From assembly GCA_964187785.1 (NCBI GenBank), contig OZ076409.1:59398001-59462000 (forward strand): DNA of 64,000 nt. The letters run 5' to 3'. The notes beneath the pieces are model-generated. The model was given only the letters and a program-made list of their open reading frames with translations, did no database searches and was not told the origin of the DNA. The stretch comes from Amphiscolops sp. MND2022. Lineage: Eukaryota. Position numbers and translations under genes: made by a program. Positions 1,365 to 31,588 of the stretch are shown here, one piece after another. Each line of letters opens with the position of its first letter. The first letter of the stretch is position 1.

Positions 1365-1883
1365 CCTCCCATCAAAAAGTATTTCCAAGGCGTCCGTCAA
1401 GGTACTTGGATGTTTTTAGTTTTCTTGTGTATTAATAAAACGGTTCTTCTAAAACTCAAGCGTAGCTAAACACGTTTCGCATTAAAGCGTTCAAATTTTG
1501 CGTTAAAATTTCATGAATAAAAATTGGCATTTTTGGCTTATGAGCACATTTTAAAAAATAAATTCAGGTTTCTTCCCTTCAAAAGTAACTTATTCAAAGG
1601 ATCGATGGATTTGTTGTTAAACGCTGTGGACATTCTAGCCGACAAAAACAATCAAAAGCTGTGCAGTTATGTCATTTTCATCATTTTTGAATTTTTCAAA
1701 TCAACTATCTAAAAAAATCATCACTAGTTTTGAAATTTACTGGTTTATATCTGTTAATTTATTGTTTTTCCGTAGAGTTTCACGGTTTACGGATATCTAA
1801 TGGAAACAGATGATGAAAAACAACAAATTCCTTCAATTATTGATCATTAGGAGGTTTGATTCTAGTACATTTGAGAAAGAAAG

Positions 1884-2598
1884 TGTAACGATAAGCGCTG
1901 GCGCTTGAACCGCAACGTAGAGTGGAGGAACTAGAACAGCGAATATAATCCGGGACTTAGATCTCCGCGGCCCTAGCTCATTTTCCCTCCGAAGGAGCCA
2001 GTCCCAAGGTGGGGGAACCGTCTTGTTGGAAACTCTCTGGCCTGGTCCTAGTCTGTAACTGCTAAAAGTAACGGGCATCTTGCATGTCTCAAGACCACTG
2101 CTCAATTAGCCTTTAAAAAAGGGACTGAAAACAGGAGGATGTTGAGCCATAATATTGGAGAATCTGATAAAATCGACATCAAAAAGGGGTAACCATAGAT
2201 GTAAATGGGCAGCTCTCGAGCATATCAATCTACTACAACAAGGAAAGCACAATAGACATAACAATATCACAAGTTCGAGTTATTTAACAGGAGCGAATCG
2301 ACCATGGCTTCCCAGCGCTAGCGCTCGTCACTGCACCGGACACCGCAGGATCTTCAGGCGAACATCTGGAACACCGGTTTCTGTTACCTACGTAGTGTAA
2401 ACGCCAAAGATGGGCACATCACCGTGTTCTAGGGACTGCTTTCTACGTCTTCTCTTCTCGTCGTCTCTCGCGGGGGGCGATTTCTGATTTCTGATCTGCT
2501 TTTCTGACAGGTCTTTCGTCTGGAGCATGTTTGAGTGCCACGTCAGATTTGAACGAATTTTTGCTTCGAAAATTTTGACATGGGCAGTTGCCGTTACA
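1884..2598 (-). repeat. 3' LTR (715 bp)
   Basis: TGTAACG...CGTTACA; matches 30874-31588 except for 3 substitutions seen by eye. Confidence 0.97.
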
Positions 2599-3371: not shown

Positions 3372-6300
3372 TTATTGGGCTGAGCTGCGTCGAGCTCGAT
3401 TCTTTATGGCATCATCGGGAGTTCCTGGATTGCTGGCATCTTTCGACGCAACTGACGCTCTACGTTGAGCAGGAACCACAGTAACTACTGTTTCCGAGTC
3501 TGATAGGTCTTCTGGGAGCGTTAAATCGGCGATCGGCTGCACCAGGATAGTGTTAGGGGTCAGTTCAGCGGCGTGTTTTCCGGTTTGGGGTTGCGATGAC
3601 TGAGGACTGGCCTGTGTCGATGGTGGACTCACAGGCTCTGGCTGCAGAATATGAGTGGGCAAATCCAGAGTCACGGGCCGGTCGATGGGCTGACTTAGTG
3701 ACATGGCCATTGTGGGTGCCAGCATGGCAGGCGCGAACGCCTGTTGTCTCTCGAGTTCAGCTCTACTCTCCACGGCCAAGGATATTCGTTTGGAGACCCA
3801 GCCAGGCTGACTCCAGAGCTCGCAAGCTCGCTTCCATTTTGGGAAGCTGGCAATCTCCAGCTCCAAGCAATGTCCTTCCCACTCTGCGCGGGCTTCGGGG
3901 CCTAGCACGGAATTGATCTCGTCGTGTTGGACGGTGGACATATCCCCTGACATTGTCATCTTGGCCTGCGGTCGCCAGGCAGCTTTTCTAGGGAACGGAG
4001 TTACGCGACTTTGCAGATTCCTCTGACGAGTCTGAGCTGCTCCTTCTATCCAGTTTGGGATCTGAGCCAATTCCATATACTGGATTTGTCGATTGAAAGC
4101 TTCAGGGGCGCGACCAACGGGTTTTGCTCTGGGCCATCCCAGTGGCTCCTTCCAATAGTGATTTGGGAAGGTGATGCATTTGAAGGCGTACAGGGGATCT
4201 ATTGGTGGACCAGCACTAGTGCTGGCACGGATCACCTTGCGTATGAACTCCTGCGACCAAGGGAATCTAAAGGGGACTCCATTCAGGCTGAGAGGCGCGG
4301 AGTACCAGTTGACTGGGCCGTATTCTCGTGGCAAAGGGCACGCCTTTCGTGTGCGGGCACGCAATAGACCCATCAAATTCTCTTCCAGCTGTTTCTCCGA
4401 CTTCAAGGTGGTGTACCCATGCGGCATCTCGCCACTCAATACAGCCTGCACGATTCGCTGATAGGTCAGTGGGGGGCGTCCTTGGAGATAGGTGCAGAAG
4501 GAGACCATATGCACCTGTACTGCTCTCGCCAATGGTTTGGTGGGATACCGGCACACACCGACCGCACCGAAGATTGGAGCCAGGACGGAAGCCATAACGG
4601 CCACGAAGTCCTCCACTTCGGCCAGAGTCAAATCGGCGATTTGCTGAGGCATGGGGAATCCCGCCGTTTCCGCAGGGAGTTGACGCTCGGAATGGTGGAG
4701 GGGTTGCGATTGATCCACGCCTACGAACAAGCCAGAGGCGAACACTAGGGTGGAATACAACCAATGTTGGAGGGACGCACGCATGCGTTCCAGCTGGGTG
4801 ACATAATCTTGCTGGTCCTTGGAATTTAGGAGGTGGCCCCATCGAGTTAGGCTGCGTAGCTGTCCCTGCGCGAGGATCATGTAGCTGTAAAAGGTGACTA
4901 GATCACTGGATACTACCAACTCGACTAACATAGCCAGGGGACCTGCCACAAACTTCGTCGGGCCCATGGTTAGCGCGAGCGCTAACATCTCTCCTACAGT
5001 AGTTTCGCCGATGGTTTCCAACAATTTGTCAGTCTGCACATTGGTGAGCAAGTACTCAGAGGCTATTACGTCAATGTTCCAGCCTAGTCCGAGACTGGTA
5101 CAAAAGGCTTCCAAGGGACAGTTAAGCTCTTGAGCTACCTCGGCCAAGGTCCTGTCCACGAATCTGGACTGATACCATTCGGCATACGTTATTCCGGCGG
5201 CATCTACTTCAGTCTTCAAGTTAGTCGCCTCCATAGCCACGACGTACCTCATGCCCACGGGCAACTTGACAGGCTCTATTCCCGCGGCAAACCGAATTTG
5301 GGGAATGGTCCTTTCGACCGTGCGTGTGGCAGGCCAGGTTTCAATTTCCTTCACGAGCTCTGCCAGCTCTGCTCGTACGGGAATTTCTTTGTCCTTCCGC
5401 ACCAACCAGTTGTAGCGTCGAACGGCCTCTCGCTCACTCATGTTAGATGCTCGCATGACGCGATTCCCGTCCAAGTCGAAGGCCATTCGCCCCATACACA
5501 TTCCATGGTCGAACAGTACGGCGTCGTCGATAGTCAGTTGTGCATTTCCCGAGCGTTCCACAGTGATTAGCACTCTTGATACGGCAGCAAAGAAGGCGGG
5601 GTATGACAATGCATCGGGGCGTAGGTCTCCGCGATCAACCCGGAGGTTTGGCGCACAAATAGCAAACTCGATTCGGCGCGCCTTACATACCTCAGACAAG
5701 ATGTACACAAATTGCTGCAAGCTTCGTTGCCAATACATGAATCCCGGCGGGGATGTGAAGAGCGCGAGCGCTCCCAGACGACCCCGAAAGATCCCTGCTG
5801 CACGCTCCATTGCGTCTGCAACCACGTTTACTAAGGTCGCCACATTCCCAGGTCTACGGGTATCTGCCATGAGGGCATCCAGGTTGTGTAGCAGTCCTTC
5901 ACAAGCCATGTGGTCGATCAAGTTGGTGAAGACTACACGTCGCGGGGGCGGCTCTCTTAGGGACCCTCTCAGGTTTGGGTCGTACATAACCGCGACCATC
6001 TCTGCGACCTCGGCGAAGCGGGAGAGTGGCATTGTTAACACCAGCACATCGGGCAGAAGGTTATCGATGGGCAGATCACTCTTGAGTGTCGAATCTACTG
6101 CCACACAATAGCGCGCACGCTGCAGAGCTGCTTTCAAGAGGGGCTTCATTGACCTGATATTGCGAGCGTAGCGGGCGTTTGCTTCCCAGGTTTCTCCTTC
6201 GTGCAATATGTACCTAGCGGGAAATTGCTCGGTGAGGTCATGCTGCAGGCGAGCCATGTAGTTGTTGGGTGTGGCGGGCAGTTGCTCTCGAGCACGCTGT

Positions 6301-7652
6301 TCCCAGGCTTGCTCACTTAGGTCCGCATCACGGGCACGTAGCGATCGAGTTATTTGAGCCGCAATGGTGATTCTGCTCACCTCTCTTTGCTCGGCGTCCG
6401 ACGGCGGTGCTCTCCTTCTGATCGCACATGTGTTCGGGTGCAAACACTCTGCCGCCATCCAGATGCGTTTGCTATCGCTAGTTACCACGGAGCCGGATAC
6501 ATCATCGGACGGGGGAAGAAAGGCGGGAGGACTGGTCTCTTCGACTGTCTCGGGCACCTCCAGGGACATGTTGGCAGAGCCTGTGCCCAAGGGCACAGGA
6601 TTCGTTTCAGGATTCGCATCCACACTGCCGTAGCGGTTGATGGCCTCTTCCAGGGACATTTGAGGCGCGCCTACGCCTAGGTGGCCGACGCGATATGGAG
6701 GCCTCACTACCACTACACTTTTCATTTGCGACTGGTGGGGTACATCTGCTCGCTTGTCCGGAGGGGGACGACTGGTCGGACTGTCGGTCACGGAATCATG
6801 GCGTGTAGCGACGATGTTTTCCTCAGTAAGTCGCTTCCGTCCAGTTTCCTCACGGGGATAGGTTATGGCGCCGGTGCTTGGTCCAGCCGTGGTTTCTGCT
6901 TCCATAGACACAGCTTCGGCTAGGGTGGTGGGTGGGGTGACACAGCCCGAGGGCTGAGCTGCGGCTTGCAAGTAATGTGCCAATCCGGGAATCCTTTGCT
7001 CAACTGCACGAACGAAGTCAGAGGAGTTGGGGTAGTTGGCGACAGCCTGCAGGGCCACAATCACCGCTTGCTCGCTGGCACTCCGTCCGATCAGATTTAG
7101 ATTAGGCACTGATGGCAGTTGGGACCCCGAGGGCTCCCGACTTGAGGCTGGTTGATTGGTAATGTTTTGCGTCGTCGTTGCCCGGGTTCCATATGGTGCC
7201 CCATAAGCAATCGAGCTAGAATGCGGCGTCGTCTGCACTGGATTTGGTGCCGAAATGGAAGGCAGCGATGGGACGTTGACGGGCATCATACGCAGTGATG
7301 CTTCTTGTTCGAATCTGGTGCCCTGGCTGGGGCCATGCACTGCGATTGATCTTTCGTCCAAGAACTGGTGAGTCAGGTCGTGCCCATCCCAGGCATTGTT
7401 GGTGCACGTCAAGGTGCGACGATAGCCTGCCACCTCCGTAGTGATTGACAAAGATGCATTTGGCAGCATTTGCATCGATTCAAGCTGGGTCAGTAGGGCA
7501 GCCATCCCAGCTACGGCTACTGGCGAAAGACCGTCCCGCAGCCTTTCTTCGACATATTGGGCCTGATTGACCCTCTGCGCTCGCGCAGATTCCTGGGGCC
7601 TTGCACTATTAGACCCTGTTGCAGGCGCTGAATTGTTTGGGCAATGGGCCAT
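3372..7652 (-). CDS. Extra ORF (ORF3, env position), 1426 aa, unknown function; central SGNH/GDSL-fold-like domain
   Basis: Intact ATG-to-TAA ORF between pol and the 3' LTR; low-complexity N- and C-termini; block pattern VAVDST / VLTMPLSR / RVVFTNLID / GDLRPDALSY at ~5560-6110. Confidence 0.85.
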   Translation of the reverse strand: MAHCPNNSAPATGSNSARPQESARAQRVNQAQYVEERLRDGLSPVAVAGMAALLTQLESMQMLPNASLSITTEVAGYRRTLTCTNNAWDGHDLTHQFLDERSIAVHGPSQGTRFEQEASLRMMPVNVPSLPSISAPNPVQTTPHSSSIAYGAPYGTRATTTQNITNQPASSREPSGSQLPSVPNLNLIGRSASEQAVIVALQAVANYPNSSDFVRAVEQRIPGLAHYLQAAAQPSGCVTPPTTLAEAVSMEAETTAGPSTGAITYPREETGRKRLTEENIVATRHDSVTDSPTSRPPPDKRADVPHQSQMKSVVVVRPPYRVGHLGVGAPQMSLEEAINRYGSVDANPETNPVPLGTGSANMSLEVPETVEETSPPAFLPPSDDVSGSVVTSDSKRIWMAAECLHPNTCAIRRRAPPSDAEQREVSRITIAAQITRSLRARDADLSEQAWEQRAREQLPATPNNYMARLQHDLTEQFPARYILHEGETWEANARYARNIRSMKPLLKAALQRARYCVAVDSTLKSDLPIDNLLPDVLVLTMPLSRFAEVAEMVAVMYDPNLRGSLREPPPRRVVFTNLIDHMACEGLLHNLDALMADTRRPGNVATLVNVVADAMERAAGIFRGRLGALALFTSPPGFMYWQRSLQQFVYILSEVCKARRIEFAICAPNLRVDRGDLRPDALSYPAFFAAVSRVLITVERSGNAQLTIDDAVLFDHGMCMGRMAFDLDGNRVMRASNMSEREAVRRYNWLVRKDKEIPVRAELAELVKEIETWPATRTVERTIPQIRFAAGIEPVKLPVGMRYVVAMEATNLKTEVDAAGITYAEWYQSRFVDRTLAEVAQELNCPLEAFCTSLGLGWNIDVIASEYLLTNVQTDKLLETIGETTVGEMLALALTMGPTKFVAGPLAMLVELVVSSDLVTFYSYMILAQGQLRSLTRWGHLLNSKDQQDYVTQLERMRASLQHWLYSTLVFASGLFVGVDQSQPLHHSERQLPAETAGFPMPQQIADLTLAEVEDFVAVMASVLAPIFGAVGVCRYPTKPLARAVQVHMVSFCTYLQGRPPLTYQRIVQAVLSGEMPHGYTTLKSEKQLEENLMGLLRARTRKACPLPREYGPVNWYSAPLSLNGVPFRFPWSQEFIRKVIRASTSAGPPIDPLYAFKCITFPNHYWKEPLGWPRAKPVGRAPEAFNRQIQYMELAQIPNWIEGAAQTRQRNLQSRVTPFPRKAAWRPQAKMTMSGDMSTVQHDEINSVLGPEARAEWEGHCLELEIASFPKWKRACELWSQPGWVSKRISLAVESRAELERQQAFAPAMLAPTMAMSLSQPIDRPVTLDLPTHILQPEPVSPPSTQASPQSSQPQTGKHAAELTPNTILVQPIADLTLPEDLSDSETVVTVVPAQRRASVASKDASNPGTPDDAIKNRARRSSAQ

Positions 7653-7947
7653 TAATGCATAGGTCTAAAAAGGACCACTGTTAGACTTACAGGGACAAGT
7701 TCTCTCTGGAACGAGCCGTGGGTCGGTTCGTCCTTCAATTGCAGCCAGGCAACATCGGCTCCGTAAGGGGGCCACTACAAACTTAAAGTTTAACTCTAAC
7801 TAACTAACGAACTAGAACAAAACCTTTGAGTGAACAACATGACAAATTAACATCTCGAGAGCATTTCAAGACTCTTCCAAGGTTGTTACAAGAATTGTTA
7901 CAAGAACTGAGGGCAAAGGAAAAATGGGGACAACTAAAATGATAAGG

Positions 7948-10900
7948 CTACTTCAGCCCTATAGTTAATATTGATACATATACGCGGCTATGCAAAACCA
8001 CGTGAATACCAGTACCCTCGAACATGTTCGTTAGAGTATGGTACAGATTGACCAACGAGAAAGCCGGTCTCTCAGGGTCCAGAATGGGTAAGTGGACCCG
8101 TGTGGATCCTTTATCTATCAGGCGCTGTATCAAGTACGTCATGCAACGCAAGTAGTCATCTGTCAGCAGCGGTGCGCGCTGGTTAGCACGGACTATTAAC
8201 AGGTGAATACTTTGGTTAGGGTTGGGGTTCACATCAGGCGGGATAGTGAGAATCTCGCCCACTTTAGGTCGTAAGGCAAATACATCTTCTATGCCGCACT
8301 CCCGCAGCACATATCGCAGGGCGGCAGAGTTGGTCTTTAGGTCAGCAGGGCATGCTAACACTATGTCGCCCTCGGCCTGCAAGAAATCGGATTCATCGTA
8401 AGAGACGTGTTCGGCTGAATTCGGATACAGGGCTCCCGGGTAAACAATCTCTCGTCCGGGACCATTATCGGAGGGCAGACACACGTGAGGGGTACGCCCT
8501 TGGACTGCAGCCAGGTCTTGCCATACTGAGCGGGGCATCGCCCGATTGTCGCTGCCGGCCTTTACCCACACATCTAAAGTTCCCAGGGCGGCTTTGGGGA
8601 ACAAGGGGATCTCGAAGGTGTGAGTCCACTCGTCTAATAGTCGAATTCTGGGATAGGTGGCGAAACATGTGATTATTAATTCCAGCCACCACGCGAACTT
8701 CATCTTGCCTCGGTACCAGTCTATGATATGGAAGCAAAGTATTAAGTCCACAGTGGTGAGGGTCCTCAGACTCTCTAGACAGGATAACAGATTCAACGGT
8801 TCCACCATCGCCTCCACTCGTGGAGCTGTTACCAGCAGCCACCAGTGAGGAGCCGGGCTGTATACCCCTCCTGGTTCCACCTGGACTCCATACTTGTCGC
8901 ATAACAAGTCGGCATTGATGCATCGGACCATCTGCACAGGTTCCCTTTCAAAATTGAATGGCCCAAACGCAATATTGCTGGGCACAGGGGGCAACACCGT
9001 GGACAGGGTAAACTCCAGGACCTTTCCATCGCTAGTCCACTCCTTAAACCTCGGACAAGGGGCCTTCGCTACCCCGGGCAGTGACAACTTCTCCAGGATA
9101 GTGTCCACAGGGTGGTCTCCAGACCGCTCTACAGCTGAGTAGGTTTTCTCGGCCCGCACCGTGAGGCGGTACACCAAGTTTTCTCTCTCTTCCGGAGGAA
9201 CTCCCCGGGCTCCAATGGGAACCCTCCGGTTCTCATTCACAGCTAATAGGCAGACACAATCTCGCAGCCCGCAGGTTCCACACTTGTAGCGCGGCTGCCG
9301 TTTACTCCTTAGTTGATACCTAAGAGCAGTTGCAGATGCCTCTGTTAGCGTCTCTGCAGTTCTGGGAGCTTCCGTTTCGGCCTGGATCGCAGTTTCGGTT
9401 TCGGCGTTTCTCGGTGTTTCTTTCTTCCTCGTCCTTGCCTTCGCTCGGATCAGCCGTTTCTTCTGTGCCTTGGGTGGTCTCCCCCTCCCCCTTTTAAAAG
9501 AAGGAGCGGTCCCCGCTCCTGGCGAAATCTCGGGAGCTTCAGGCAGATCGGGCTGAACGTTGCTGTCGCTGCTGGCAGATTTGAGAGGAATCGGAGGGGC
9601 GGTCGGCCATATGGGATAGTTGCTAAGAAAATTGGTTAGCGAGGGATTCGTCAACAAGGATGCTGAGGTTCCTGGTAACGATGTTTCTTTTTCGGAGGAG
9701 GATATCTGTGGAGACGGTGAGCGCACGCGCTCATGGTCAGAGAACAGTTGAGGTAGTACACGGGCAGGGGATATCGACTGATCCAACGCAGTCGGAGGAG
9801 CCGCAGGCTCCACTAGATCCTCGTCAACTGGAGGTATCGGCAACATGGCATCGGATAGTTCGTCGTCTGTACCTGAGGTGGAATAGTCAAATTGCTGATA
9901 ATGCGGGCGGGAGACGCCTGCGCGAAGTTTCGTGCGTAGTCGAGTGTCCATCCAGTGACGTCGACGTGAGGGCAAAGATGCATCGGACGCTTCTGAAAGT
10001 AGTTGTTCGGGTTTATACGACGATAGAGACTTGTCGTCATCAACTACGTCGACGGAACGTTCAGGTTCGGGGTCCATAAGGACCACCACCTCACCACTGT
10101 CCGTGTGTGCAGTAGCAAGTTCAAGTGGGCCACTGTGGTGCGGTTTAAGACGCTCAAAATGAACCTTTTGACCTGTGTCTAGCACATAGACACGACCGTC
10201 CTGAAAGACTTGTACAACCTTGTGCGGGCCTCGCCAAGCACGCATCAATTTCGGGGAACCCTTTTGCGGTACGTAGCGGCAAAATACCCAGACGAGCTCG
10301 CCTACTTGGTAAGCTCGCGCTTGTATAGCACGGTCGTACTTCAACTTTTGACGCAATTGGGCTTGGTGCGTGTTACGCCGTACCAAGTCATGTATTTCCT
10401 GCTGGCGAGCCAATACATGATCGACATACGCCTCATGCGACTCGAATGATTTGGCTGCAAATTCGGGATACAAGAACGTGAGAGGGATGGCCTTCTCTAC
10501 ACCACGGGTCAGCATGTAGGGTGAGAAGCCAGTGGTGGCGTGCCTCGTAGAGTTGTAGGCGCCTATGACCTCATCAAGACATTGGTCCCAGTCGCGCATA
10601 CGGCGGGAGCAAAAAACTCGCAGTAGGGTTAACAGCGTCCGATTTTGACGCTCCACCAAGCCTTGGGTTCTCGGATGGCTAGCCGTAGAGGTTACTTTGG
10701 TAACGTGGGCTGCTTTTAGGAATTCGTTGGACACCTCAGCAGTCAAATTTGGGGCATTGTCAGACTGCATTCTAGTGGGTGTGCCATGACGGGCGAACCA
10801 CTTTTGTAACAGCAACCGAGAGGTAGTCACAGCGTCGTAGTCGTGATGACTACAGGGCACTGCTTCCGCGAACTTGGAGAAATGGTCAATTATGACCAAG

Positions 10901-13900
10901 ATGCCAGTGTTATTACTGTCTGAGGGGCAGATCTTCAGATGATCATATTGGACCAATTCGTTGAAGTATCCGCTCTGGATGTTCTTTAGGTGGAATCGGA
11001 CGTCACCAGGCTTATCTCGAACTTGTTGACAGGTGAGGCATTGGCCAACGTAACGGCCCACGCTGCGTCGAATACCAGGCCATGTGCGACGTTCTTGAAT
11101 CCGAGCCACCACTTTGGAGATACCTTGATGTCCCATGGCGTCATGCGCGCGGAATAAAATCTCATGCTGGTACAGTTGAGGCATGACGATCATGCACGGA
11201 CGCTCGGGCAGAGGACGTTGGTTGGGAGGGTATCGTACGCAAAGCACACCATTCTTGTTAATAAACAGGAGAGTTTTCTTTTGACGGTAGTAGTTGCGTG
11301 CGAACTCACGCACGTTCTCGGGAAACACGTCATGATCGATGGGTTCGTTTAGCACCAACTTTTTGAGTGCTAGCACATGAACATCACGATTTTGGGCTAG
11401 AATCAAATCTTTGATACCATGCACGGTGTGAGCATGTTCGTGAAGTTCAGTGTTGATGTCTTTAAGAGCCAAAATTGAGTCGCGTACACCCGAGGGAGTA
11501 CCCTGCAGCGCAACAGGATTCGCCCCAGCAATGGCATAGACGGTACGTGAGGGTACATTTACGGCATGCGTCGGTAATAGATAATCTTCGCGTGCTTCAT
11601 CAGTCACATCAATCCAGTCCTCAGGGTAGTCTGGATAGGCATCCTCGTGCGGTTGCAGAGCAAGGGAAGGCGGAGGCGGCAAGGGGGCTGCGAATGCTTT
11701 TGCTAGTCTGTCCCTCCTGCTCGCTCGTTTGGTGCGGCGAAGCACGCGTAGCAATTGGTTGGGAGCCTTAGGCTCCAAGTTCTGCAGGTGCGCAGGTAGC
11801 TCGGGATGATTCGGGATGACTCGACCCTGAAGGTCGAACCATGGGGCAACAGGTAGTTTATCAAATTCGTCAGCTGAAAGAAAATTCCAGCGTTCGCCCG
11901 CAGCTGGCTGCTGTGCAAGCTGTTTCTCGCGGCATCGGTACTCGTTGGTTCGTTTGCTCAAGCCATCGGCGTTTCGATGTTGAGTTCTCGGGCGGTGTTC
12001 CACGCGAAAGTGATACTTCTCCAGGGTCATAATCCATCGGCCGATTAGCGCTTGATCCGTGGAGTAGGTTTTCAACCAGGACAAAGCTTGGTTGTCCACC
12101 CGCAGGGTGAATTTCCGGGGACATAGATAGCTGTGGTTTTTCACTATGAAATAGTAGGCGGCGAACATTTCAAGTTTGGGAGCTCCGTATTTGGCTTGTG
12201 TGGTGGTGAGCTTCTTGCTACCGTAAACTATCGGTCTCAGGCGTCGTTCACCCGGAGGACCTTGCCACTGGTGCAGGATACCAGAAATGGCGACAGCACT
12301 AGCGTCAGTGTCCAACACAAACTCTCCTTCGGAATCAGGCTGCGCGAGCGCAGTTGCCTCGATTAGGGCTTTTTTGATCTCATTGAATGCGGTTTCTTGC
12401 TTAGGACCCCAGGCGAAGGTGGCATTCAGTCCAGTGACGGCGTGCAGGGGTGCAACCAGCTTAGCGTGCCAAGGGATGAATTCGCGATAATAGTTGGCGA
12501 ATCCAAGGAAACTCTGCATCTCCGTCTTGTTACGGGGAATTTCCCAATCGCGCAACTTGACGACGGCTTTCGGGTCGGGCTTCACTCCTTCTGCGGAAAC
12601 CACTCGTCCCAAATACTTGATCTCCGATTTCATGAAATCGCATTTGGCCACGCGCATTTTGAAACCGGCTTCACGGAGGCATTCAAAGACTTCACGTAGG
12701 CGTACCATATGGTCTTCCACAGTCTCTGTGGCAATCACGATATCATCAATGTAGGCCATGACCATGCTGCCCTCACGATTGACAATATTCCTTAGCGCAC
12801 GCGCTATTGACCGCTGAAACGTGGCAGATGCATTGCACATACCAAATGGCATTCGCCGCCACTCAAAAAGTCCTAGTTCACAAGCAAAAGCGGTTTTGTG
12901 GCGATCCGCCTTTCGCACAGGAATTTGCCAAAAGGCTCAAGCAAGGTCTATGCTGGTATAGATCTTCGCCTTGCCTAGCCGTGCCAGGCTTTCATCAATG
13001 CGGGGCAAGGGATAAGCATCCTTAATGGTTACCTCATTTAACGGGCGGAAGTCGCAGCAAAAGCGCAACTCCCCGTTTTTCTTTTTCACCATTACAATGC
13101 CGCTCGCCCAAGGGGACAGCGAGGGCTGTATCATTCCCAGAGCTAAGAGGTTCCGTACCTCCTGATTGGCACGTTCGGCCTTCTCAGGGGACATCCGGCG
13201 AGCACCTTCACGCTGCGGTACAGCCCCTGGTTCCACCTCCACGGTGTGCTTAGCGATAGTGCACCGACCGATGTCCGCTTTGTGTTTCATGAATAGCTCA
13301 TCGAATTCATCGAGGAGGTTACGGAGAGACTCGCAGGCGCTAGCGCCCCATAAATCCTTGACCGCCTTGAGCTGAGATTCCGGCCCAGGAATCGGAGCCA
13401 TTAGCTCTGGGTCCGTTCGCTTGCGAATCTCGCGCTCCGATAGTCCTGCCTCGCTAGGGTCAGTAGAGGACAAAAACTCAAATTCTGAAGAAGAGGTTAA
13501 CTCAGAAGCAGTGGATAGATTCACTTCACTATAAATTTTATGAACAAAATTTGCACGACTGTCGTCGGCGTCAGTTTTCGTGCGGGTTGTAGTGGGAGAG
13601 TCCAAACATTGAGGTACTGCTTGGTATACTACCGTTATGGGTACTACGGTGCCCAGTTGTACACCACACCGCATGCGTTGAGGGTTGCTGGTGAGATTTA
13701 TCAGGCTCACAAAGAGTGTTCCTGTCTCACTGACAGTGGCCACGCTGTCCTCTAAAAAGACGACATTGTGCAACGTAGTGTCAGACAAAGAGGCATTGAG
13801 CGCTACGCTTTGAAAAATCAGCGGCTCTAGTGTGTTGGTGACGAGCTTGGCTCTAGCCACCGCTCGTTCGAAAGGTTGCAGGACCAAGTCACTGTCCAAA

Positions 13901-16900
13901 ACGACTGGAGTAGCTATTGAAGTGTCACCTACCTGTGCGTGAGCATGATGCCACACAGGCTTCACTGGTGCTCGCACCACAATCTTCATAGATGTTAGAT
14001 CCACTAACACCTGGTAGGAGCGAAGAAAGTTCCGGCCAAGTAGGAAGTCTTCCACACCCATTGCGTCATCTACCACCACAAAGTTCGTTTCAAGTTCGTA
14101 TCCTCCCAGCTGGAAATGGATGTGTTCTGCGAGGCCGTAGGTCTTTATTGTCTTCCCGTTGGCTGCGTACAGGTCAACTTGGTAGGGTTTAAGTACCGTT
14201 CCAGTTCGAGCTGCCACTCTGTTGAAGGCGGAAAACGTCAGTATGGAGACGCCCGAGCCAGTGTCCACCAGTCCTCGCAGCGGAATAGGTGCTGCATGAG
14301 GCACCACGAAAGAGACCACGAGCGACGCACGCTCATCTATACGCGCTTCGCCGGTGGGCTCCTGATGATTGATGTTATAGCATTTGAGCTCCTGGGGACC
14401 CAGACAAATGCCAGGGGGAAATACATCCACCACCACACAGGCTTCGAATTTCATAACCACTCCATCCATTGAAGCGCAGACTGGCACTGGGGAATATGTT
14501 GTCAGAGTCGCAGACTCTCCCGGAGCGTACCATTCTTTCGGTCGTGGCAACTCGTTTCGTTTGTAGAGGATAGACAATTCGACCCATAGCTTCGCCAGAG
14601 TTAGCGTCGGCCTACGTATTTGCTCAGCTGCCAGCAACAGGTGAATTGAAATCAGCGTCCGTCCTTGCGGATCGAACGTCGTGGGTTCCAAGCAGGTCTG
14701 AACTTGCTTAGCACCACAAGTGAATGTCATCGGAGTGTGGAACGCAGGCGGTTCCGCTGGATGTAGCATCAACACACGGTCATCTTCCAAAGGTACGGTG
14801 TGCGCGGCGATGCCAGCTGATTCGACCTCAGCCCATCGATTGTAGGCCAACTCGTCATTGGGTTTCGGCGCATGGGAGTGCTCACCACATTGCACTTCCG
14901 CCTGATCGAAAAGTCCACAGCTCGTGCATTGATAGATCCCCGGATGACCTTCAAGGATACCATCGGTCGTGTCTTCCGTGGTCACCTTTACGCCCTCTGG
15001 TTCGGAGGCAGTCATTGGTTTTCGGGCTTGGTCACGATTGGGGCACTCGCGAGCAAAATGTCCGTTTTGCCCACAGTGGAAACAAGCACCTACCGGCGCT
15101 CGGGCGGGCGCTGGGACAGCGGGAGCTGGGACATTTTGGGGTGGCGCCGGAGTTGGCAGGACGCCCTGCGGCATAACCATCTTGTTCGGCGGCAGTGGTG
15201 CGAAAGGATGAGGTCTAGACCTCATGGCTAATCTGGGATCATAGGGTTGTTGAGGTTGGGTGGGTCTAGGACGATTTCGTTGCAATTGACGTGTGGTAAA
15301 TCGCAAGGACTCCACGGTAGGGGGTTCGGTAAGAAAAGTCTCCGAGGCGTATACTATGGCAAGTTCACGCCTCAACACTGGATCTCGCACACCTTCCATG
15401 AAGCGTTGCAAGATTTCATAACGTTTGGTAATGATACTTTCTTGCGGGAATCCTTGGCTCCTGAGACCCTCTAAAGCGTCTAAGTACTGCATCCAGTCCT
15501 CTTTTTCTTGTTGGACGCGGCTTTGGAAGGTCTGCCGCACCTGCATACGATTTCCTCCCGCGCCAAATCGGCTAGATAGCAACTCAAACACCTTCTCGGG
15601 GGTGTCACGTTCAGACTCAGCCTTGTTGATGATGTAGTTGCGAGCCTCACCCTCGAGGTGACCGATAATGCTCCAGGCCCGATCTTCGGCCGAGATCTTG
15701 GCTTGGACTCTTTTCAAGTATCGCTGCATCACTAAGATCCAGCCATCAATAGACCCGTCCTTAGAGCCTCGATACACGCTGGGTTTGGTTTGAGCCAGGT
15801 CACGTCCCGCAAGCAACGGTGCTAGCTCTTTGGACATTGCTTTGGAGATGGCGGCAGTGAACCTCAATTGCTCGGGAGAGATGACTTCAGCCTCTCCTTC
15901 CTTGGGTGCCACTTCATCAGTACCGTCGTCACTGCCATGCGTAGCTCGCACTGAGAGGTTCGTCACGTCTTCTTTCCTGCGAGTGCTACTCGCGCAAGGA
16001 GCGCCCGAGGGCATTCCGTCCTCGGCTGTCCAGTCGGCGGTCAGATACAGGGAGTCCGTTCCAGAAACCATGGTAGGGGCCGTCGCATACGCAGCTCCAT
16101 CAGTCTGGGACCCTAGTGTGGCCTTAGTACAGGATAAATCAACTTCGGTAGAAGTATCTAGATAGATAGGTGACATCGGGTCCACACCTTGGTCTCGGGT
16201 GGCACTTCGAACTACGGAGGATGTTATTTGACTCATCGACGAGGAGTCGTGGGGCCCTCTTACCTGCACCCGTGCAGGTTTACGCTCCACAGCAGCCATG
16301 ATGGGTACAGGATCCTTGGTTCGGGTTTCAGGCGTCGTCGACTTGGAGGTGCTAGGCTTCAATGCGCTCGCCACTTCGGGTTTTGTTGCCTGACCCTGGT
16401 GCGATGATTCCGGAATCTTAATTGAATCCGCGATCGGCACACCTTCAGTGGCACCAGATTGTCGTGGGAGGGACCTTTCGCGCCTCATGATGTTGATAGC
16501 ATTGAGCACAGTGTGCATTTGGTTACTCAAATCATTGATCTGGGTCTCCACACGAAGTTCACGGGCCATCAAGAGGTCATTCATCTCACCCATTCTGTAG
16601 CCTAGTGCATCTACGCGAGCACTCTGCGTGTTCTGCGCGGTTCGCAGTTGATCACTGACCTGCAATCCTTCTCGCATCGTTGTCTGCAACGTTCTCATAT
16701 TTTCTGCGATGGCACGATGTTGGTCATTGCACCCAGCACGAGTGCTAGCCAGCTCAGCTAAGGCACGTTGGGTCTCGGCTTGGGCTTCCAATATTGCGGC
16801 TTTGTACACCGAAGATCGTTGGGACGATGCCACTGAACCTGCCACGCTCCTCTTACGAGGCACCTCAACTTGACGTTCACCTACATTTATCATGGGTGGT

Positions 16901-17214
16901 CGCACTTTCTTGTGTTTGCCATAAGCACAAACTCTAGTGTTACTTCGAGTGACTCCAGACCCTTGCGGTCTCGCACCACTCGTGTTCTCCGAGTAGGTAA
17001 GATCCTCATCCACCGTGATCTGTAGGCGGGAGCTCATCTTTTCCCCTAGGGGTGCGCGAGAGCACCCTTCCTCAGCTGCAAGTTCGTTGGTCACGTTTGA
17101 GTTGGGCCACTCCTCTTCTGCTTCATTGGCTCTTTCACGACAGGTTTCTTCGACCCATTGTTCGGTTCGACGAGAGCTTCCAGATGCAACGGAACCCTCA
17201 GAGGGAGGGACCAT
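7948..17214 (-). pseudogene. Gag-Pol polyprotein (~3088 aa when repaired), interrupted by one nonsense codon in RT
   Basis: ATG at 17214 in a GCCGCCATGG context; CCHC knuckle CFHCGQNGHFAREC (15043-15084); protease LVDTGSG; RT YIDD; RNase H DTDAS; integrase HHCC + D-D-E (YDH, SDN, VER) + GPH. ORFs 12937..17223 and 7948..12918 are in frame, split by TGA at 12937-12939, where the duplicate copy has TGG. Confidence 0.93.
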
Positions 17215-17443
17215 GGCGGCCAATTCCTCCTTGCGTTGTTACTCGATAGTGACTTCGTCAGACATTTCGTCTGAAAAATGCGAACCGTCCATTGTGGATC
17301 CTATGGTCACCCATGACTGCGAACTCATGTCAAGCTTTTCCAGGCCTGGTAGGACCATTACACACGATGCCAATGGCAGAGTAGGTGTCAACGATTCGGA
17401 TGTAGCCTTTATAGAAGTCTCGAAGACGTATAGAAGGTTCTCT

Positions 17444-20400
17444 GTGGCAGCTCGAACTGGAACGGTACTTAAACCCTACCAAGTTGACCTGTACGCAGCC
17501 AACGGGAAGACAATAAAGACCTACGGCCTCGCAGAACACATCCATTTCCAGCTGGGAGGATACGAACTTGAAACGAACTTTGTGGTGGTAGATGACGCAA
17601 TGGGTGTGGAAGACTTCCTACTTGGCCGGAACTTTCTTCGCTCCTACCAGGTGTTAGTGGATCTAACATCTATGAAGATTGTGGTGCGAGCACCAGTGAA
17701 GCCTGTGTGGCATCATGCTCACGCACAGGTAGGTGACACTTCAATAGCTACTCCAGTCGTTTTGGACAGTGACTTGGTCCTGCAACCTTTCGAACGAGCG
17801 GTGGCTAGAGCCAAGCTCGTCACCAACACACTAGAGCCGCTGATTTTTCAAAGCGTAGCGCTCAATGCCTCTTTGTCTGACACTACGTTGCACAATGTCG
17901 TCTTTTTAGAGGACAGCGTGGCCACTGTCAGTGAGACAGGAACACTCTTTGTGAGCCTGATAAATCTCACCAGCAACCCTCAACGCATGCGGTGTGGTGT
18001 ACGACTGGGCACCGTAGTACCCATAACGGTAGTATACCAAGCAGTACCTCAATGTTTGGACTCTCCCACTACAACCCGCACAAAAACTGACGCCGACGAC
18101 AGTCGTGCAAATTTTGTTCATAAAATTTATAGTGAAGTGAATCTATCCACTGCTTCTGAGTTAACCTCTTCTTCAGAATTTGAGTTTTTGTCCTCTACTG
18201 ACCCTAGCGAGGCAGGACTATCGGAGCGCGAGATTCGCAAGCGAACGGACCCAGAGCTAATGGCTCCGATTCCTGGGCCGGAATCTCAGCTCAAGGCGGT
18301 CAAGGATTTAAGGGGCGCTAGCGCCTGCGAGTTTCTCCGTAACCTCCTCGATGAATTCGATGAGCTATTCATGAAACACAAAGCGGACATCGGTCGGTGC
18401 ACTATCGCTAAGCACACCGTGGAGGTGGAACCAGGGGCTGTACCGCATCGTGAAGGTGCTCGCCGGATGTCCCCTGAGAAGGCCGAACGTGCCAATCAGG
18501 AGGTACGGAACCTCTTAGCTCTGGGAATGATACAGCCCTCGCTGTCCCCTTGGGCGAGCGGCATTGTAATGGTGAAAAAGAAAAACGGGGAGTTGCGCTT
18601 TTGCTGCGACTTCCGCCCGTTAAATGAGGTAACCATTAAGGATGCTTATCCCTTGCCCCGCATTGATGAAAGCCTGGCACGGCTAGGCAAGGCGAAGATC
18701 TATACCAGCATAGACCTTGCTTGGGCCTTTTGGCAAATTCCTGTGCGAAAGGCGGATCGCCACAAAACCGCTTTTGCTTGTGAACTAGGACTTTTTGAGT
18801 GGCGGCGAATGCCATTTGGTATGTGCAATGCATCTGCCACGTTTCAGCGGTCAATAGCGCGTGCGCTAAGGAATATTGTCAATCGTGAGGGCAGCATGGT
18901 CATGGCCTACATTGATGATATCGTGATTGCCACAGAGACTGTGGAAGACCATATGGTACGCCTACGTGAAGTCTTTGAATGCCTCCGTGAAGCCGGTTTC
19001 AAAATGCGCGTGGCCAAATGCGATTTCATGAAATCGGAGATCAAGTATTTGGGACGAGTGGTTTCCGCAGAAGGAGTGAAGCCCGACCCGAAAGCCGTCG
19101 TCAAGTTGCGCGATTGGGAAATTCCCCGTAACAAGACGGAGATGCAGAGTTTCCTTGGATTCGCCAACTATTATCGCGAATTCATCCCTTGGCACGCTAA
19201 GCTGGTTGCACCCCTGCACGCCGTCACTGGACTGAATGCCACCTTCGCCTGGGGTCCTAAGCAAGAAACCGCATTCAATGAGATCAAAAAAGCCCTAATC
19301 GAGGCAACTGCGCTCGCGCAGCCTGATTCCGAAGGAGAGTTTGTGTTGGACACTGACGCTAGTGCTGTCGCCATTTCTGGTATCCTGCACCAGTGGCAAG
19401 GTCCTCCGGGTGAACGACGCCTGAGACCGATAGTTTACGGTAGCAAGAAGCTCACCACCACACAAGCCAAATACGGAGCTCCCAAACTTGAAATGTTCGC
19501 CGCCTACTATTTCATAGTGAAAAACCACAGCTATCTATGTCCCCGGAAATTCACCCTGCGGGTGGACAACCAAGCTTTGTCCTGGTTGAAAACCTACTCC
19601 ACGGATCAAGCGCTAATCGGCCGATGGATTATGACCCTGGAGAAGTATCACTTTCGCGTGGAACACCGCCCGAGAACTCAACATCGAAACGCCGATGGCT
19701 TGAGCAAACGAACCAACGAGTACCGATGCCGCGAGAAACAGCTTGCACAGCAGCCAGCTGCGGGCGAACGCTGGAATTTTCTTTCAGCTGACGAATTTGA
19801 TAAACTACCTGTTGCCCCATGGTTCGACCTTCAGGTCGAATCATCCCGAGCTACCTGCGCACCTGCAGAACTTGGAGCCTAAGGCTCCCAACCAATTGCT
19901 ACGCGTGCTTCGCCGCACCAAACGAGCGAGCAGGAGGGACAGACTAGCAAAAGCATTCGCAGCCCCCTTGCCGCCTCCGCCTTCCCTTGCTCTGCAACCG
20001 CACGAGGATGCCTATCCAGACTACCCTGAGGACTGGATTGATGTGACTGATGAAGCACGCGAAGATTATCTATTACCGACGCATGCCGTAAATGTACCCT
20101 CACGTACCGTCTATGCCATTGCTGGAGCGAATCCTGTTGCGCTGCAGGGTACTCCCTCGGGTGTACGCGACTCAATTTTGGCTCTTAAAGACATCAACAC
20201 TGAACTTCACGAACATGCTCACACCGTGCATGGTATCAAAGATTTGATTCTAGCCCAAAATCGTGATGTTCATGTGCTAGCACTCAAAAAGTTGGTGCTA
20301 AACGAACCCATCGATCATGACGTGTTTCCCGAGAACGTGCGTGAGTTCGCACGCAACTACTACCGTCAAAAGAAAACTCTCCTGTTTATTAACAAGAATG

Positions 20401-23400
20401 GTGTGCTTTGCGTACGATACCCTCCCAACCAACGTCCTCTGCACGAGCGTCCGTGCATGATCGTCATGCCTCAACTGTACCAGCATGAGATTTTATTCCG
20501 CGCGCATGACGCCATGGGACATCAAGGTATCTCCAAAGTGGTGGCTCGGATTCAAGAACGTCACACATGGCCTGGTATTCGGCGCAGCGTGGGCCGTTAC
20601 GTTGGCCAATGCCTCACCTGTCAACAAGTTCGAGATAAGCCTGGTGACGTCCGATTCCACCTAAAGAACATCCAGAGCGGATACTTCAACGAATTGGTCC
20701 AATATGATCATCTGAAGATCTGCCCCTCAGACAGTAATAACACTGGCATCTTGGTCATAATTGACCATTTCTCCAAGTTCGCGGAAGCAGTGCCCTGTAG
20801 TCATCACGACTACGACGCTGTGACTACCTCTCGGTTGCTGTTACAAAAGTGGTTCGCCCGTCATGGCACACCCACTAGAATGCAGTCTGACAATGCCCCA
20901 AATTTGACTGCTGAGGTGTCCAACGAATTCCTAAAAGCAGCCCACGTTACCAAAGTAACCTCTACGGCTAGCCATCCGAGAACCCAAGGCTTGGTGGAGC
21001 GTCAAAATCGGACGCTGTTAACCCTACTGCGAGTTTTTTGCTCCCGCCGTATGCGCGACTGGGACCAATGTCTTGATGAGGTCATAGGCGCCTACAACTC
21101 TACGAGGCACGCCACCACTGGCTTCTCACCCTACATGCTGACCCGTGGTGTAGAGAAGGCCATCCCTCTCACGTTCTTGTATCCCGAATTTGCAGCCAAA
21201 TCATTCGAGTCGCATGAGGCGTATGTCGATCATGTATTGGCTCGCCAGCAGGAAATACATGACTTGGTACGGCGTAACACGCACCAAGCCCAATTGCGTC
21301 AAAAGTTGAAGTACGACCGTGCTATACAAGCGCGAGCTTACCAAGTAGGCGAGCTCGTCTGGGTATTTTGCCGCTACGTACCGCAAAAGGGTTCCCCGAA
21401 ATTGATGCGTGCTTGGCGAGGCCCGCACAAGGTTGTACAAGTCTTTCAGGACGGTCGTGTCTATGTGCTAGACACAGGTCAAAAGGTTCATTTTGAGCGT
21501 CTTAAACCGCACCACAGTGGCCCACTTGAACTTGCTACTGCACACACGGACAGTGGTGAGGTGGTGGTCCTTATGGACCCCGAACCTGAACGTTCCGTCG
21601 ACGTAGTTGATGACGACAAGTCTCTATCGTCGTATAAACCCGAACAACTACTTTCAGAAGCGTCCGATGCATCTTTGCCCTCACGTCGACGTCACTGGAT
21701 GGACACTCGACTACGCACGAAACTTCGCGCAGGCGGCTCCCGCCCGCATTATCAGCAATTTGACTATTCCACCTCAGGTACAGACGACGAACTATCCGAT
21801 GCCATGTTGCCGATACCTCCAGTTGACGAGGATCTAGTGGAGCCTGCGGCTCCTCCGACTGCGTTGGATCAGTCGATATCCCCTGCCCGTGTACTACCTC
21901 AACTGTTCTCTGACCATGAGCGCGTGCGCTCACCGTCTCCACAGATATCCTCCTCCGAAAAAGAAACATCGTTACCAGGAACCTCAGCATCCTTGTTGAC
22001 GAATCCCTCGCTAACCAATTTTCTTAGCAACTATCCCATATGGCCGACCGCCCCTCCGATTCCTCTCAAATCTGCCAGCAGCGACAGCAACGTTCAGCCC
22101 GATCTGCCTGAAGCTCCCGAGATTTCGCCAGGAGCGGGGACCGCTCCTTCTTTTAAAAGGGGGAGGGGGAGACCACCCAAGGCACAGAAGAAACGGCTGA
22201 TCCGAGCGAAGGCAAGGACGAGGAAGAAAGAAACACCGAGAAACGCCGAAACCGAAACTGCGATCCAGGCCGAAACGGAAGCTCCCAGAACTGCAGAGAC
22301 GCTAACAGAGGCATCTGCAACTGCTCTTAGGTATCAACTAAGGAGTAAACGGCAGCCGCGCTACAAGTGTGGAACCTGCGGGCTGCGAGATTGTGTCTGC
22401 CTATTAGCTGTGAATGAGAACCGGAGGGTTCCCATTGGAGCCCGGGGAGTTCCTCCGGAAGAGAGAGAAAACTTGGTGTACCGCCTCACGGTGCGGGCCG
22501 AGAAAACCTACTCAGCTGTAGAGCGGTCTGGAGACCACCCTGTGGACACTATCCTGGAGAAGTTGTCACTGCCCGGGGTAGCGAAGGCCCCTTGTCCGAG
22601 GTTTAAGGAGTGGACTAGCGATGGAAAGGGCCTGGAGTTTACCCTGTCCACGGTGTTGCCCCCTGTGCCCAGCAATATTGCGTTTGGGCCATTCAATTTT
22701 GAAAGGGAACCTGTGCAGATGGTCCGATGCATCAATGCCGACTTGTTATGCGACAAGTATGGAGTCCAGGTGGAACCAGGAGGGGTATACAGCCCGGCTC
22801 CTCACTGGTGGCTGCTGGTAACAGCTCCACGAGTGGAGGCGATGGTGGAACCGTTGAATCTGTTATCCTGTCTAGAGAGTCTGAGGACCCTCACCACTGT
22901 GGACTTAATACTTTGCTTCCATATCATAGACTGGTACCGAGGCAAGATGAAGTTCGCGTGGTGGCTGGAATTAATAATCACATGTTTCGCCACCTATCCC
23001 AGAATTCGACTATTAGACGAGTGGACTCACACCTTCGAGATCCCCTTGTTCCCCAAAGCCGCCCTGGGAACTTTAGATGTGTGGGTAAAGGCCGGCAGCG
23101 ACAATCGGGCGATGCCCCGCTCAGTATGGCAAGACCTGGCTGCAGTCCAAGGGCGTACCCCTCACGTGTGTCTGCCCTCCGATAATGGTCCCGGACGAGA
23201 GATTGTTTACCCGGGAGCCCTGTATCCGAATTCAGCCGAACACGTCTCTTACGATGAATCCGATTTCTTGCAGGCTGAGGGCGACATAGTGTTAGCATGC
23301 CCTGCTGACCTAAAGACCAACTCTGCCGCCCTGCGATATGTGCTGCGGGAGTGCGGCATAGAAGATGTATTTGCCTTACGACCTAAAGTGGGCGAGATTC

Positions 23401-23702
23401 TCACGATCCCGCCTGATGTGAACCCCAACCCTAACCAAAGTATTCACCTGTTAATAGTCCGTGCTAACCAGCGCGCACCGCTGCTGACAGATGACTACTT
23501 GCGTTGCATGACGTACTTGATACAGCGCCTGATAGATAAAGGATCCACACGGGTCCACTTACCCATTCTGGACCCCGAGAGACCGGCTTTCTCGTTGGTC
23601 AATCTGTACCATACTCTAACGAACATGTTCGAGGGTACTGGTATTCACGTGGTTTTGCATAGCCGCGTATATGTATCAATATTAACTATAGGGCTGAAGT
23701 AG
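17444..23702 (+). pseudogene. Second pol copy (C-terminal part of protease, RT, RH, IN, C-terminal tail), 5'-truncated and frameshifted
   Basis: ORFs 17015..19882 and 19743..23702 are joined by a frameshift (1-nt plus 10-nt deletion in a TCATCCCGA tandem repeat); gag and the DTG motif are absent. Confidence 0.93.
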
Positions 23703-25029
23703 CCTTATCATTTTAGTTGTCCCCATTTTTCCTTTGCCCTCAGTTCTTGTAACAATTCTTGTAACAACCTTGGAAGAGTCTTGAAATGCTCTCGAGATGT
23801 TAATTTGTCATGTTGTTCACTCAAAGGTTTTGTTCTAGTTCGTTAGTTAGTTAGAGTTAAACTTTAAGTTTGTAGTGGCCCCCTTACGGAGCCGATGTTG
23901 CCTGGCTGCAATTGAAGGACGAACCGACCCACGGCTCGTTCCAGAGAGAACTTGTCCCTGTAAGTCTAACAGTGGTCCTTTTTAGACCTATGCATTAATG
24001 GCCCATTGCCCAAACAATTCAGCGCCTGCAACAGGGTCTAATAGTGCAAGGCCCCAGGAATCTGCGCGAGCGCAGAGGGTCAATCAGGCCCAATATGTCG
24101 AAGAAAGGCTGCGGGACGGTCTTTCGCCAGTAGCCGTAGCTGGGATGGCTGCCCTACTGACCCAGCTTGAATCGATGCAAATGCTGCCAAATGCATCTTT
24201 GTCAATCACTACGGAGGTGGCAGGCTATCGTCGCACCTTGACGTGCACCAACAATGCCTGGGATGGGCACGACCTGACTCACCAGTTCTTGGACGAAAAA
24301 TCAATCGCAGTGCATGGCCCCAGCCAGGGAACCAGATTCGAACAAGAAGCATCACTGCGTATGATGCCCGTCAACGTCCCATCGCTGCCTTCCATTTCGG
24401 CACCAAATCCAGTGCAGACGACGCCGCATTCTAGCTCGATTGCTTATGGGGCACCATATGGAACCCGGGCAACGACGACGCAAAACATTACCAATCAACC
24501 AGCCTCAAGTCGGGAGCCCTCGGGGTCCCAACTGCCATCAGTGCCTAATCTAAATCTGATCGGACGGAATGCCAGCGAGCAAGCGGTGATTGTGGCCCTG
24601 CAGGCTGTCGCCAACTACCCCAACTCCTCTGACTTCGTTCGTGCAGTTGAGCAAAGGATTCCCGGATTGGCACATTACTTGCAAGCCGCAGCTCAGCCCT
24701 CGGGCTGTGTCACCCCACCCACCACCCTAGCCGAAGCTGTGTCTATGGAAGCAGAAACTACGGCTGGACCAAGCACCGGCGCCATAACCTATCCCCGTGA
24801 GGAAACTGGACGGAAGCGACTTACTGAGGAAAACATCGTCGCTACACGCCATGATTCCGTGACCGACAGTCCGACCAGTCGTCCCCCTCCGGACAAGCGA
24901 GCAGATGTACCCCACCAGTCGCAAATGAAAAGTGTAGTGGTCGTGAGGCCTCCATATCGCGTTGGCCACCTAGGCGTAGGCGCGCCTCAAATGTCCCTGG
25001 AAGAGGCCATCAACCGCTACGGCAGTGTG
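17444..25029 (+). repeat. Inverted duplicate of 6621-14217 (pol plus start of ORF3)
   Basis: Near-identical reverse complement; coordinate sums are 31661 left of an 11-nt deletion at ~19835-19840 and 31650 right of it. Confidence 0.97.
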
Positions 25030-25035
25030 TGTTGA
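23998..25035 (+). pseudogene. Truncated second copy of ORF3 (first ~344 aa)
   Basis: Near-identical to the N-terminus of 3372..7652; ends at the junction at 25029/25030. Confidence 0.93.
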
Positions 25036-30858: not shown

Positions 30859-30873
30859 AAAAATGAGGTTCTA

Positions 30874-31588
30874 TGTAACGATAAGCGCTGGCGTTTGAAC
30901 CGCAACGTAGAGTGGAGGAACTAGAACAGCGAATATAATCCGGGACTTAGATCTCCGCGGCCCTAGCTCATTTTCCCTCCGAAGGAGCCAGTCCCAAGGT
31001 GGGGGAACCGTCTTGTTGGAAACTCTCTGGCCTGGTCCTAGTCTGTAACTGCTAAAAGTAACGGGCATCTTGCATGTCTCAAGACCACTGCTCAATTAGC
31101 CTTTAAAAAAAGGACTGAAAACAGGAGGATGTTGAGCCATAATATTGGAGAATCTGATAAAATCGACATCAAAAAGGGGTAACCATAGATGTAAATGGGC
31201 AGCTCTCGAGCATATCAATCTACTACAACAAGGAAAGCACAATAGACATAACAATATCACAAGTTCGAGTTATTTAACAGGAGCGAATCGACCATGGCTT
31301 CCCAGCGCTAGCGCTCGTCACCGCACCGGACACCGCAGGATCTTCAGGCGAACATCTGGAACACCGGTTTCTGTTACCTACGTAGTGTAAACGCCAAAGA
31401 TGGGCACATCACCGTGTTCTAGGGACTGCTTTCTACGTCTTCTCTTCTCGTCGTCTCTCGCGGGGGGCGATTTCTGATTTCTGATCTGCTTTTCTGACAG
31501 GTCTTTCGTCTGGAGCATGTTTGAGTGCCACGTCAGATTTGAACGAATTTTTGCTTCGAAAATTTTGACATGGGCAGTTGCCGTTACA
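30874..31588 (-). repeat. 5' LTR (715 bp)
   Basis: Partner of 1884-2598; adjacent to the PBS. Confidence 0.97.

Follow-up and report, generated by a model that had tools for sequence, protein, structure and literature searches.

The 64,000-nucleotide stretch of Amphiscolops sp. MND2022 DNA analysed here (contig OZ076409.1, positions 59,398,001 to 59,462,000; hereafter the window, whose numbering is used throughout) carries a Gypsy long terminal repeat (LTR) retrotransposon of about 18.9 kb. To this element belongs ORF3, a gene for a 1426-residue accessory protein at 3372..7652 on the minus strand, in the env slot, downstream of the pol stop (7948) and upstream of the 3' LTR (1884-2598). We propose that ORF3 is a conserved, selected accessory protein in which a predicted SGNH pseudo-esterase domain binds a lipid-like ligand and ties the element to membranes; this is our preferred, still tentative explanation, with a little less than an even chance of being right.

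ORF3 is a real gene and not a chance reading frame, because 17 of its top 30 matches in the genome are in open frames 1420 codons long or longer and the ratio of nonsynonymous to synonymous substitution (dN/dS) between families is 0.07. It runs from ATG to TAA without an internal stop, as an initial annotation made from the letters alone had reported, and that annotation was also right that this is not a typical env, as the traits of an Env glycoprotein are missing. There is no signal peptide (the highest 11-residue hydropathy within the first 40 residues is -0.4) and no C-terminal transmembrane anchor (the highest 19-residue hydropathy within the last 250 residues is 1.0); an internal furin site is likewise lacking, the sole R-X-K/R-R being RARR at 1419, eight residues before the end. 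Two internal hydrophobic stretches, which the initial annotation did not mention, lie at residues 901-919 (1.78) and 1016-1034 (2.28). Searches by sequence gave no name to the protein: Pfam has no family for ORF3, and 99 relatives produced scattered matches only, at E >= 0.012 and none of them env; a PDB sequence search returned nothing for the protein or for one ORF3 profile; and ESM Atlas had no usable match for residues 480-760. Designed PPR repeats, the PDB match of a second ORF3 profile, were rejected, the score being only a sum of 4-6-bit repeats.

A genome search with ORF3 residues 500-750 gave 3134 candidates, 150 of which were scored and are all 96-100% identical. Genome searches with more distant relatives reached nine informal families, A to I, from each of which one or two copies were taken. 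In all nine, pol, the conserved Pol tail and ORF3 stand in identical order; compared with the window copy, identity ranges over 70-98% in reverse transcriptase (RT)/RNase H, 41-99% in the Pol tail and 30-99% in the ORF3 core. Both trees, of pol and of ORF3 (FastTree, unrooted, nine families only), group D+E and F+G+H+I, and the order inside A-C and F-I differs; this fits inheritance of ORF3 together with pol. Over whole ORF3, dN/dS (Nei-Gojobori) is 0.07 between A and B, where dS of about 2.2 is near saturation, and 0.07 between two B copies (dN 0.023, dS 0.33); it is 0.05-0.07 over residues 501-720 and 0.04-0.06 over residues 901-1100, and more distant pairs are saturated. Very recent pairs show 0.71 (A-A) and 0.38 (C-C), as neutral change after insertion would give. 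Two of the checks that the initial annotation had suggested, retention of ORF3 in other family copies and dN/dS across families, both come out in favour of the gene: it is in place in the nine sampled families, and the substitution pattern points to purifying selection between them.

The central domain of ORF3, residues ~505-703 (5544..6140, minus strand), is predicted to have an SGNH fold by structure prediction, fold search and profile match. In a 916-residue model built from 99 sequences (mean pLDDT 63), the confident parts were residues ~535-700 and ~790-972; with this model Foldseek found nothing at E <= 0.001, and VIA-align ranked SGNH hydrolases first, with Z up to 7.7. Since the large model had placed strand 1 poorly, the domain was refolded alone (residues 500-740, 48 sequences). 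The best model reached pLDDT 86 and pTM 0.81 (the other four, pLDDT 73-75) and shows the SGNH-hydrolase beta/alpha order, a five-stranded alpha/beta/alpha arrangement with blocks I, II, III and V in sequence, which agrees with the SGNH-like fold that the initial annotation had expected. The fold search covered 48,161 chains, and its 50 highest rows (Z 11.2 to 8.0) are mostly GDSL/SGNH hydrolases, an assignment that we presume for the rows whose title names no family. The GDSL lipase 3p94 stands first (Z 11.2, rmsd 3.8, 172 residues aligned), and further matches include PAF-AH 1bwp (Z 11.1), EstA 3hp4 (Z 10.9) and Oskar OSK 5a4a (Z 8.9, rank 34). The Foldseek rows for the domain list SGNH proteins at probability near 1, with some unrelated alpha/beta folds among them. 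For an independent profile comparison, an SGNH reference was made from six intact families, one representative each, out of 30 same-genome loci found with PF13472. Against ORF3 residues 505-705 it scored 26.75 (E 0.0024, probability 12%) and placed D520-S521 on G-D-S; the controls scored at most 18.95 in 50 column shuffles and 13.8 when reversed, and six other regions of ORF3 gave no score above 12.2. As a separate observation, the genome has at least six SGNH-domain families with Ser and His intact (loci L082-L111), several of them in multiple near-identical copies.

Every SGNH block motif quoted in the initial annotation is found in ORF3: AVDST (D520-S521), TMPLSR (P542), FTNLIDH (N577, D580), TSPPG (635-637) and GDLRP (R678). 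Residues were counted in a 12-row divergent alignment and in a 48-row alignment that includes decayed fragments. Ser521, at the nucleophile position (6090..6092, minus strand), is kept in 11/11 rows of the former and in 32 of the 33 rows of the latter that have a residue there. In the divergent alignment D520 is kept in 11/11 rows, and N577, D580 and the PPG motif in 12/12. Arg678 (5619..5621, minus strand), at the inferred position of the catalytic His, is found in 12/12 rows and in 38 of the 41 with a residue in the larger alignment, one of the others having His; it stands just before the last helix of the fold, the place of D-x-x-H in SGNH enzymes, and bears out the replacement of His by Arg in a DGLHP-like block that had been noticed at first, with the register inferred from spacing. 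His581 occurs in 10/12 and 37/40 rows. Compared with an active SGNH enzyme, ORF3 therefore has the block I Ser and lacks the rest: Gly at 543 (block II) is present in 1/12 rows, the oxyanion Asn at 579 (block III) in 0/12, with a hydrophobic residue instead, and position 675, that of the triad Asp, is variable, leaving no D-x-x-H in block V. The register of positions 543 and 579 comes from the profile alignment and motif spacing.

The domain is charge-neutral (22 K/R, 23 D/E), and its invariant residues cluster at pocket positions, most densely in the SGNH pocket motifs. Because the nucleophile Ser is invariant, the alignments indicate a pocket that is conserved, not decayed. In the LINE esterase ZfL2-1, H282S abolishes hydrolysis (PMC3905857; here and below, published systems are described from the available parts of the cited papers), and as the His position of ORF3 is Arg, its SGNH domain is unlikely to be a classical esterase. 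The earlier wording, probably non-catalytic, agrees with the Arg at the His position and the lost oxyanion Asn, and is refined by the invariant nucleophile and the kept pocket.

We propose the following for the lipid-binding pseudo-esterase. First, ORF3 would be translated from a spliced subgenomic RNA. A candidate splice acceptor, a branch-point-like CTAAC with a pyrimidine-rich AG, lies just 5' of the ORF3 ATG (7653..7690, minus strand); a pyrimidine-rich AG stands 5-13 nt upstream of the ATG in families A-E, and a branch-point-like CTAAC/CTAAT in A-C. Second, a pocket of Ser521, Asn577, Asp580 and Arg678 may hold an acyl or phosphate group. The ligand would be anionic and lipid-like, considering that Ser and Arg would share the pocket, and it would be gripped rather than cut, since the catalytic His is lacking. 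Third, the pseudo-esterase may act with two further parts of the protein: an all-helical domain at residues ~790-972 (4737..5285, minus strand), well predicted with pLDDT 79-97 by blocks, and the hydrophobic helix at residues 1016-1034 (4551..4607, minus strand), possibly membrane-inserting or buried, with hydropathy 1.7-2.3 in families A-E and low model confidence. Together they would tie particles or an RNA-protein complex to cell membranes, and ORF3 would thereby do part of the job of an envelope protein. Lipid binding by the SGNH domain is our best guess by analogy, as lipid roles have precedents in the LINE esterase (PMC3905857) and in the GDSL ORF3 of Vesta (PMC5408684); the pocket position of the invariant residues and the neutral charge speak for a small-ligand pocket over an RNA surface.

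Several observations count against this proposal. Foldseek with the domain model gave a best E of 2.6e-3 and no match at E <= 0.001, and the profile alignment ended near residue 657. The mapping of Arg678 onto the catalytic His follows motif spacing and secondary-structure order rather than residue-level superposition. An invariant Ser is as compatible with an unusual enzyme as it is with a pocket that only binds. The SGNH domain makes up ~200 of the 1426 residues, and the equally conserved C-terminal half could hold the main function; the hydrophobic helix, whose hydropathy drops to ~1.7 in families D and E, may simply be buried. Families F-I are without a splice-acceptor signal adjoining the ORF3 ATG.

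The alternative that survives best is modelled on Oskar: the pseudo-esterase would bind RNA and, with the long disordered N- and C-terminal regions, would assemble, export or protect the 19-kb element RNA. The SGNH domain OSK has no catalytic activity but binds RNA (PMC12005264), and it matches the ORF3 model; the long P/S/T/Q-rich linkers of ORF3 suit such a role, and in the LTR element Cer1 export of the genomic RNA depends on the spliced accessory protein CERV (PMC10309623). However, OSK is a host germ-plasm protein, it ranks under active esterases in the fold search, which gave no sign of its standing closer to ORF3 than other SGNH proteins do, and ORF3 keeps the Ser pocket. Because the domain is charge-neutral, we do not favour an Oskar-like RNA surface and regard this explanation as possible but doubtful.

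Another possibility is that the domain is an atypical active enzyme, an acyltransferase or slow hydrolase in which Ser521 works with another base, such as His581, or with substrate assistance. The near-invariance of Ser521 and the frequency of His581 in both alignments would agree with this; but the two remotest rows of the divergent alignment have another residue in place of His581, and without the triad Asp, the block II Gly and the oxyanion Asn such an enzyme seems unlikely. It is unlikely to a similar degree that the SGNH domain is a scaffold and that the activity, such as counter-silencing or contacts with Gag or with proteins of the host, resides in the N-terminal and helical C-terminal domains. 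Residues 901-1100 are constrained like the SGNH domain, the helical domain is confidently modelled, and a small N-terminal region, residues ~20-135 (7248..7595, minus strand), still shares 36-42% identity with the remotest families; against a mere scaffold, the pocket motifs hold the densest invariant residues of all. Finally, a diverged env glycoprotein or fusogen, for which the env-slot position, the candidate splice acceptor and one hydrophobic segment at 2.28 could be cited, is highly improbable in the light of the missing signal peptide, anchor and internal furin site, the lack of a conserved Cys pattern in the 12-row divergent alignment and the lack of a Pfam env match among the 99 members.

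The element around ORF3 has the ends and the domain order of Ty3/Gypsy (Metaviridae). Self-comparison of the window found a 715-bp 3' LTR, TGTAAC..GTTACA (1884..2598, minus strand), and a 5' LTR (30874..31588, minus strand) 99.6% identical to it, with TG..CA ends, a purine run 5' of the 3' LTR and a primer-binding-site-like (PBS-like) TGG motif 14 nt downstream of the 5' LTR; a Pfam scan gave the order gag, protease, RT, RNase H, integrase. Throughout the families inspected, the TGG motif starts 13-16 nt past the 5' LTR end and does not adjoin it (window 30835-30873, minus strand; L048, L055, L060, L075, L079, L081). The gag-pol frame (7948..17429, minus strand) comprises a CCHC knuckle, protease, RT, RNase H, integrase and a long tail, with an in-frame stop near 12937 in the window copy. 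Other copies are laid out as LTR, ~2.8 kb leader, gag-pol, 295 nt, ORF3, 773 nt and LTR, and LTR pairs span 18,879-18,903 bp in 10/13 cases. The internal region of ~17.5 kb lies below the 20 kb that defines giant transposable elements in the text available of PMC6431247; under that rule the element is large, not giant, and the initial annotation's "giant" has to be dropped.

The window copy has an internal duplication and inversion peculiar to it (17444..28240): an inverted duplicate of 6621-14217 lies at 17444-25029 and a direct duplicate of 14220-17429 at 25030-28240. Between 14220 and 28240 the gag part is directly duplicated, and pol with the first 345 ORF3 codons (23998-25035, plus strand) is present as an inverted duplicate, all within one insertion flanked by a target-site duplication (TSD). 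A template switch or an assembly artefact may be the origin.

The conserved C-terminal tail of Pol (7948..8420, minus strand) is kept in all nine families and looks macrodomain-like by eye. As its ESM Atlas lead of 0.78 is under the reliable range of that score, and Pfam and PDB sequence searches were without match, the macrodomain is a weak lead only; macrodomain ORFs have been reported in fish retroviruses (PMC4977317). A second conserved domain of the tail, upstream of the macro-like end at 8420-9050 (minus strand) and after a CxxCxxxxCxC motif, is possibly macro-like by eye and gave no Pfam or PDB match. Between protease and RT, at ~13300-13700 (minus strand), there is a beta-rich segment without Pfam match, which we take to resemble the dUTPase-like insert known at that position.

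The insertion is bounded by a 3-bp TSD (1881..1883, minus strand; partner 31589-31591), and such duplications are also seen at loci L112-L141. A 3-bp direct repeat is found at the ends of 10/13 full-length family-A pairs and a 4-7 bp repeat in 0/13; mismatched pairs, as a control, show a 3-bp repeat in 4/156. The six copies from other families that could be read (two of B and one each of C, D, G and I) have 3 bp as well, in one case a run of T; another four (E, F, H and one I) were unreadable, with LTRs tandem or rearranged. According to the available parts of a 2025 paper (PMC12440569), other LTR retrotransposons, Ty3/Gypsy among them, make TSDs of 4-6 bp and 3 bp marks Troyka; we take the 4-6 bp as a typical trait of Ty3/Gypsy and not a formal criterion. 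Membership in Troyka/Kuafuorterviruses, which share the 3-bp TSD, was rejected because the element has TG..CA ends, a CX2CX4HX4C knuckle and YIDD, whereas Troyka has CG..CG ends, CX2CX8-10HX4C and the RT motif I/V/L-ADD; Troyka also has no GPY/F motif, LTRs of 100-400 bp and an internal region below 7.7 kb (PMC12440569, PMC11673190), in contrast to the GP-type motif after integrase, 715-bp LTRs and 17.5 kb seen here. Ordinary TG..CA ends together with a 3-bp TSD mean that this TSD is not unique to Troyka; it suggests that the integrase has a changed geometry, and annotation tools tuned to 4-6 bp would likely overlook this very abundant family of repeats or trim it wrongly.

An SGNH ORF3 is known from Vesta of bdelloid rotifers, which the initial annotation did not cite: there too the domain lies in a separate ORF3 after pol, replacing env and without env features (PMC5408684). 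The match to a described ORF3 is partial, since the Vesta GDSL ORFs are ~1.3 kb with S-G-N-H residues intact, whereas the ORF3 described here, compared by features, is 4.3 kb, has several domains, shows Arg in place of the His and lacks the oxyanion Asn. The esterase ORF1p of CR1/L2/RTEX LINEs, such as ZfL2-1, shares the retroelement SGNH fold and a proposed lipid and membrane role, but is enzymatically active, if slow, and occupies ORF1 of non-LTR elements (PMC3905857). Athena-L Penelope-like elements carry dead GDSL derivatives, also a catalytically dead SGNH domain borne by a retroelement, of another class (PMC5408684). Burro of planarians is, like the present element, a very long, high-copy animal Gypsy with extra domains; it differs in exceeding 30 kb, in its apoptosis and ubiquitin domains and in an env-like region within the polyprotein, and an SGNH ORF3 is not mentioned in the parts of PMC6431247 available. 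ORF3 bears on an open question, the role of the many non-env ORF3s of LTR retrotransposons: an apparently dead-enzyme ORF3 has been kept under strong selection while RT fell to 70% and ORF3 to 30% identity, it sets binding apart from catalysis among the roles of retroelement esterases, and it offers a compact, well-predicted 200-residue domain for assay.

The shared architecture and the 3-bp TSD make a distinct Gypsy lineage plausible. The lineage is probably undescribed: a literature search, with Repbase, most subscription journals and supplements outside its coverage, found neither ORF3 nor TG..CA elements with 3-bp TSDs, and a Repbase family could already hold the element. Going further, this may be an old lineage, defined by TG..CA ends with 3-bp TSDs, a macro-like Pol tail and an obligate ORF3 of 1,400-1,500 residues, in which a lipid-binding pseudo-esterase replaced env and, with no envelope glycoprotein, brings particles to membranes or through them; as a whole this picture is speculative and rather unlikely. 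Searches for relatives gave unnamed proteins only (best 150 of 643 and 120 of 299 matches). P0328, from a short contig, is the short-contig relative that was compared with the window's genome (P0318 and P0281 were left out); as its best match there is 29%, the ORF3 family likely extends to one or more other organisms. P0275, from the same cluster as P0328, labelled a protein of a bacterial metagenome-assembled genome and found on an 816-bp contig, is probably carried-over animal DNA.

Other repeats surround the element. Pieces of other Gypsy-like elements occur at 1-529 and 53191-54789 (plus strand), and also in L061, and the family-A element appears to lie directly after the 3' end of one. 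Tandem or nested copies are seen elsewhere in the genome: a second gag-pol lies upstream in L077, leader sequence continues past the 3' LTR in L051, and a family-B-like LTR stands beside a family-C copy in L057. At 41014-41714 a 16-bp tandem repeat forms inverted arrays with another pair of repeats on their flanks; these may be the ends of a foldback or MITE-like element. BEL/Pao-type fragments, with RT, RNase H-like and integrase ORFs, lie at 59757-64000 (minus strand), next to a 200-N gap at 59533-59732.

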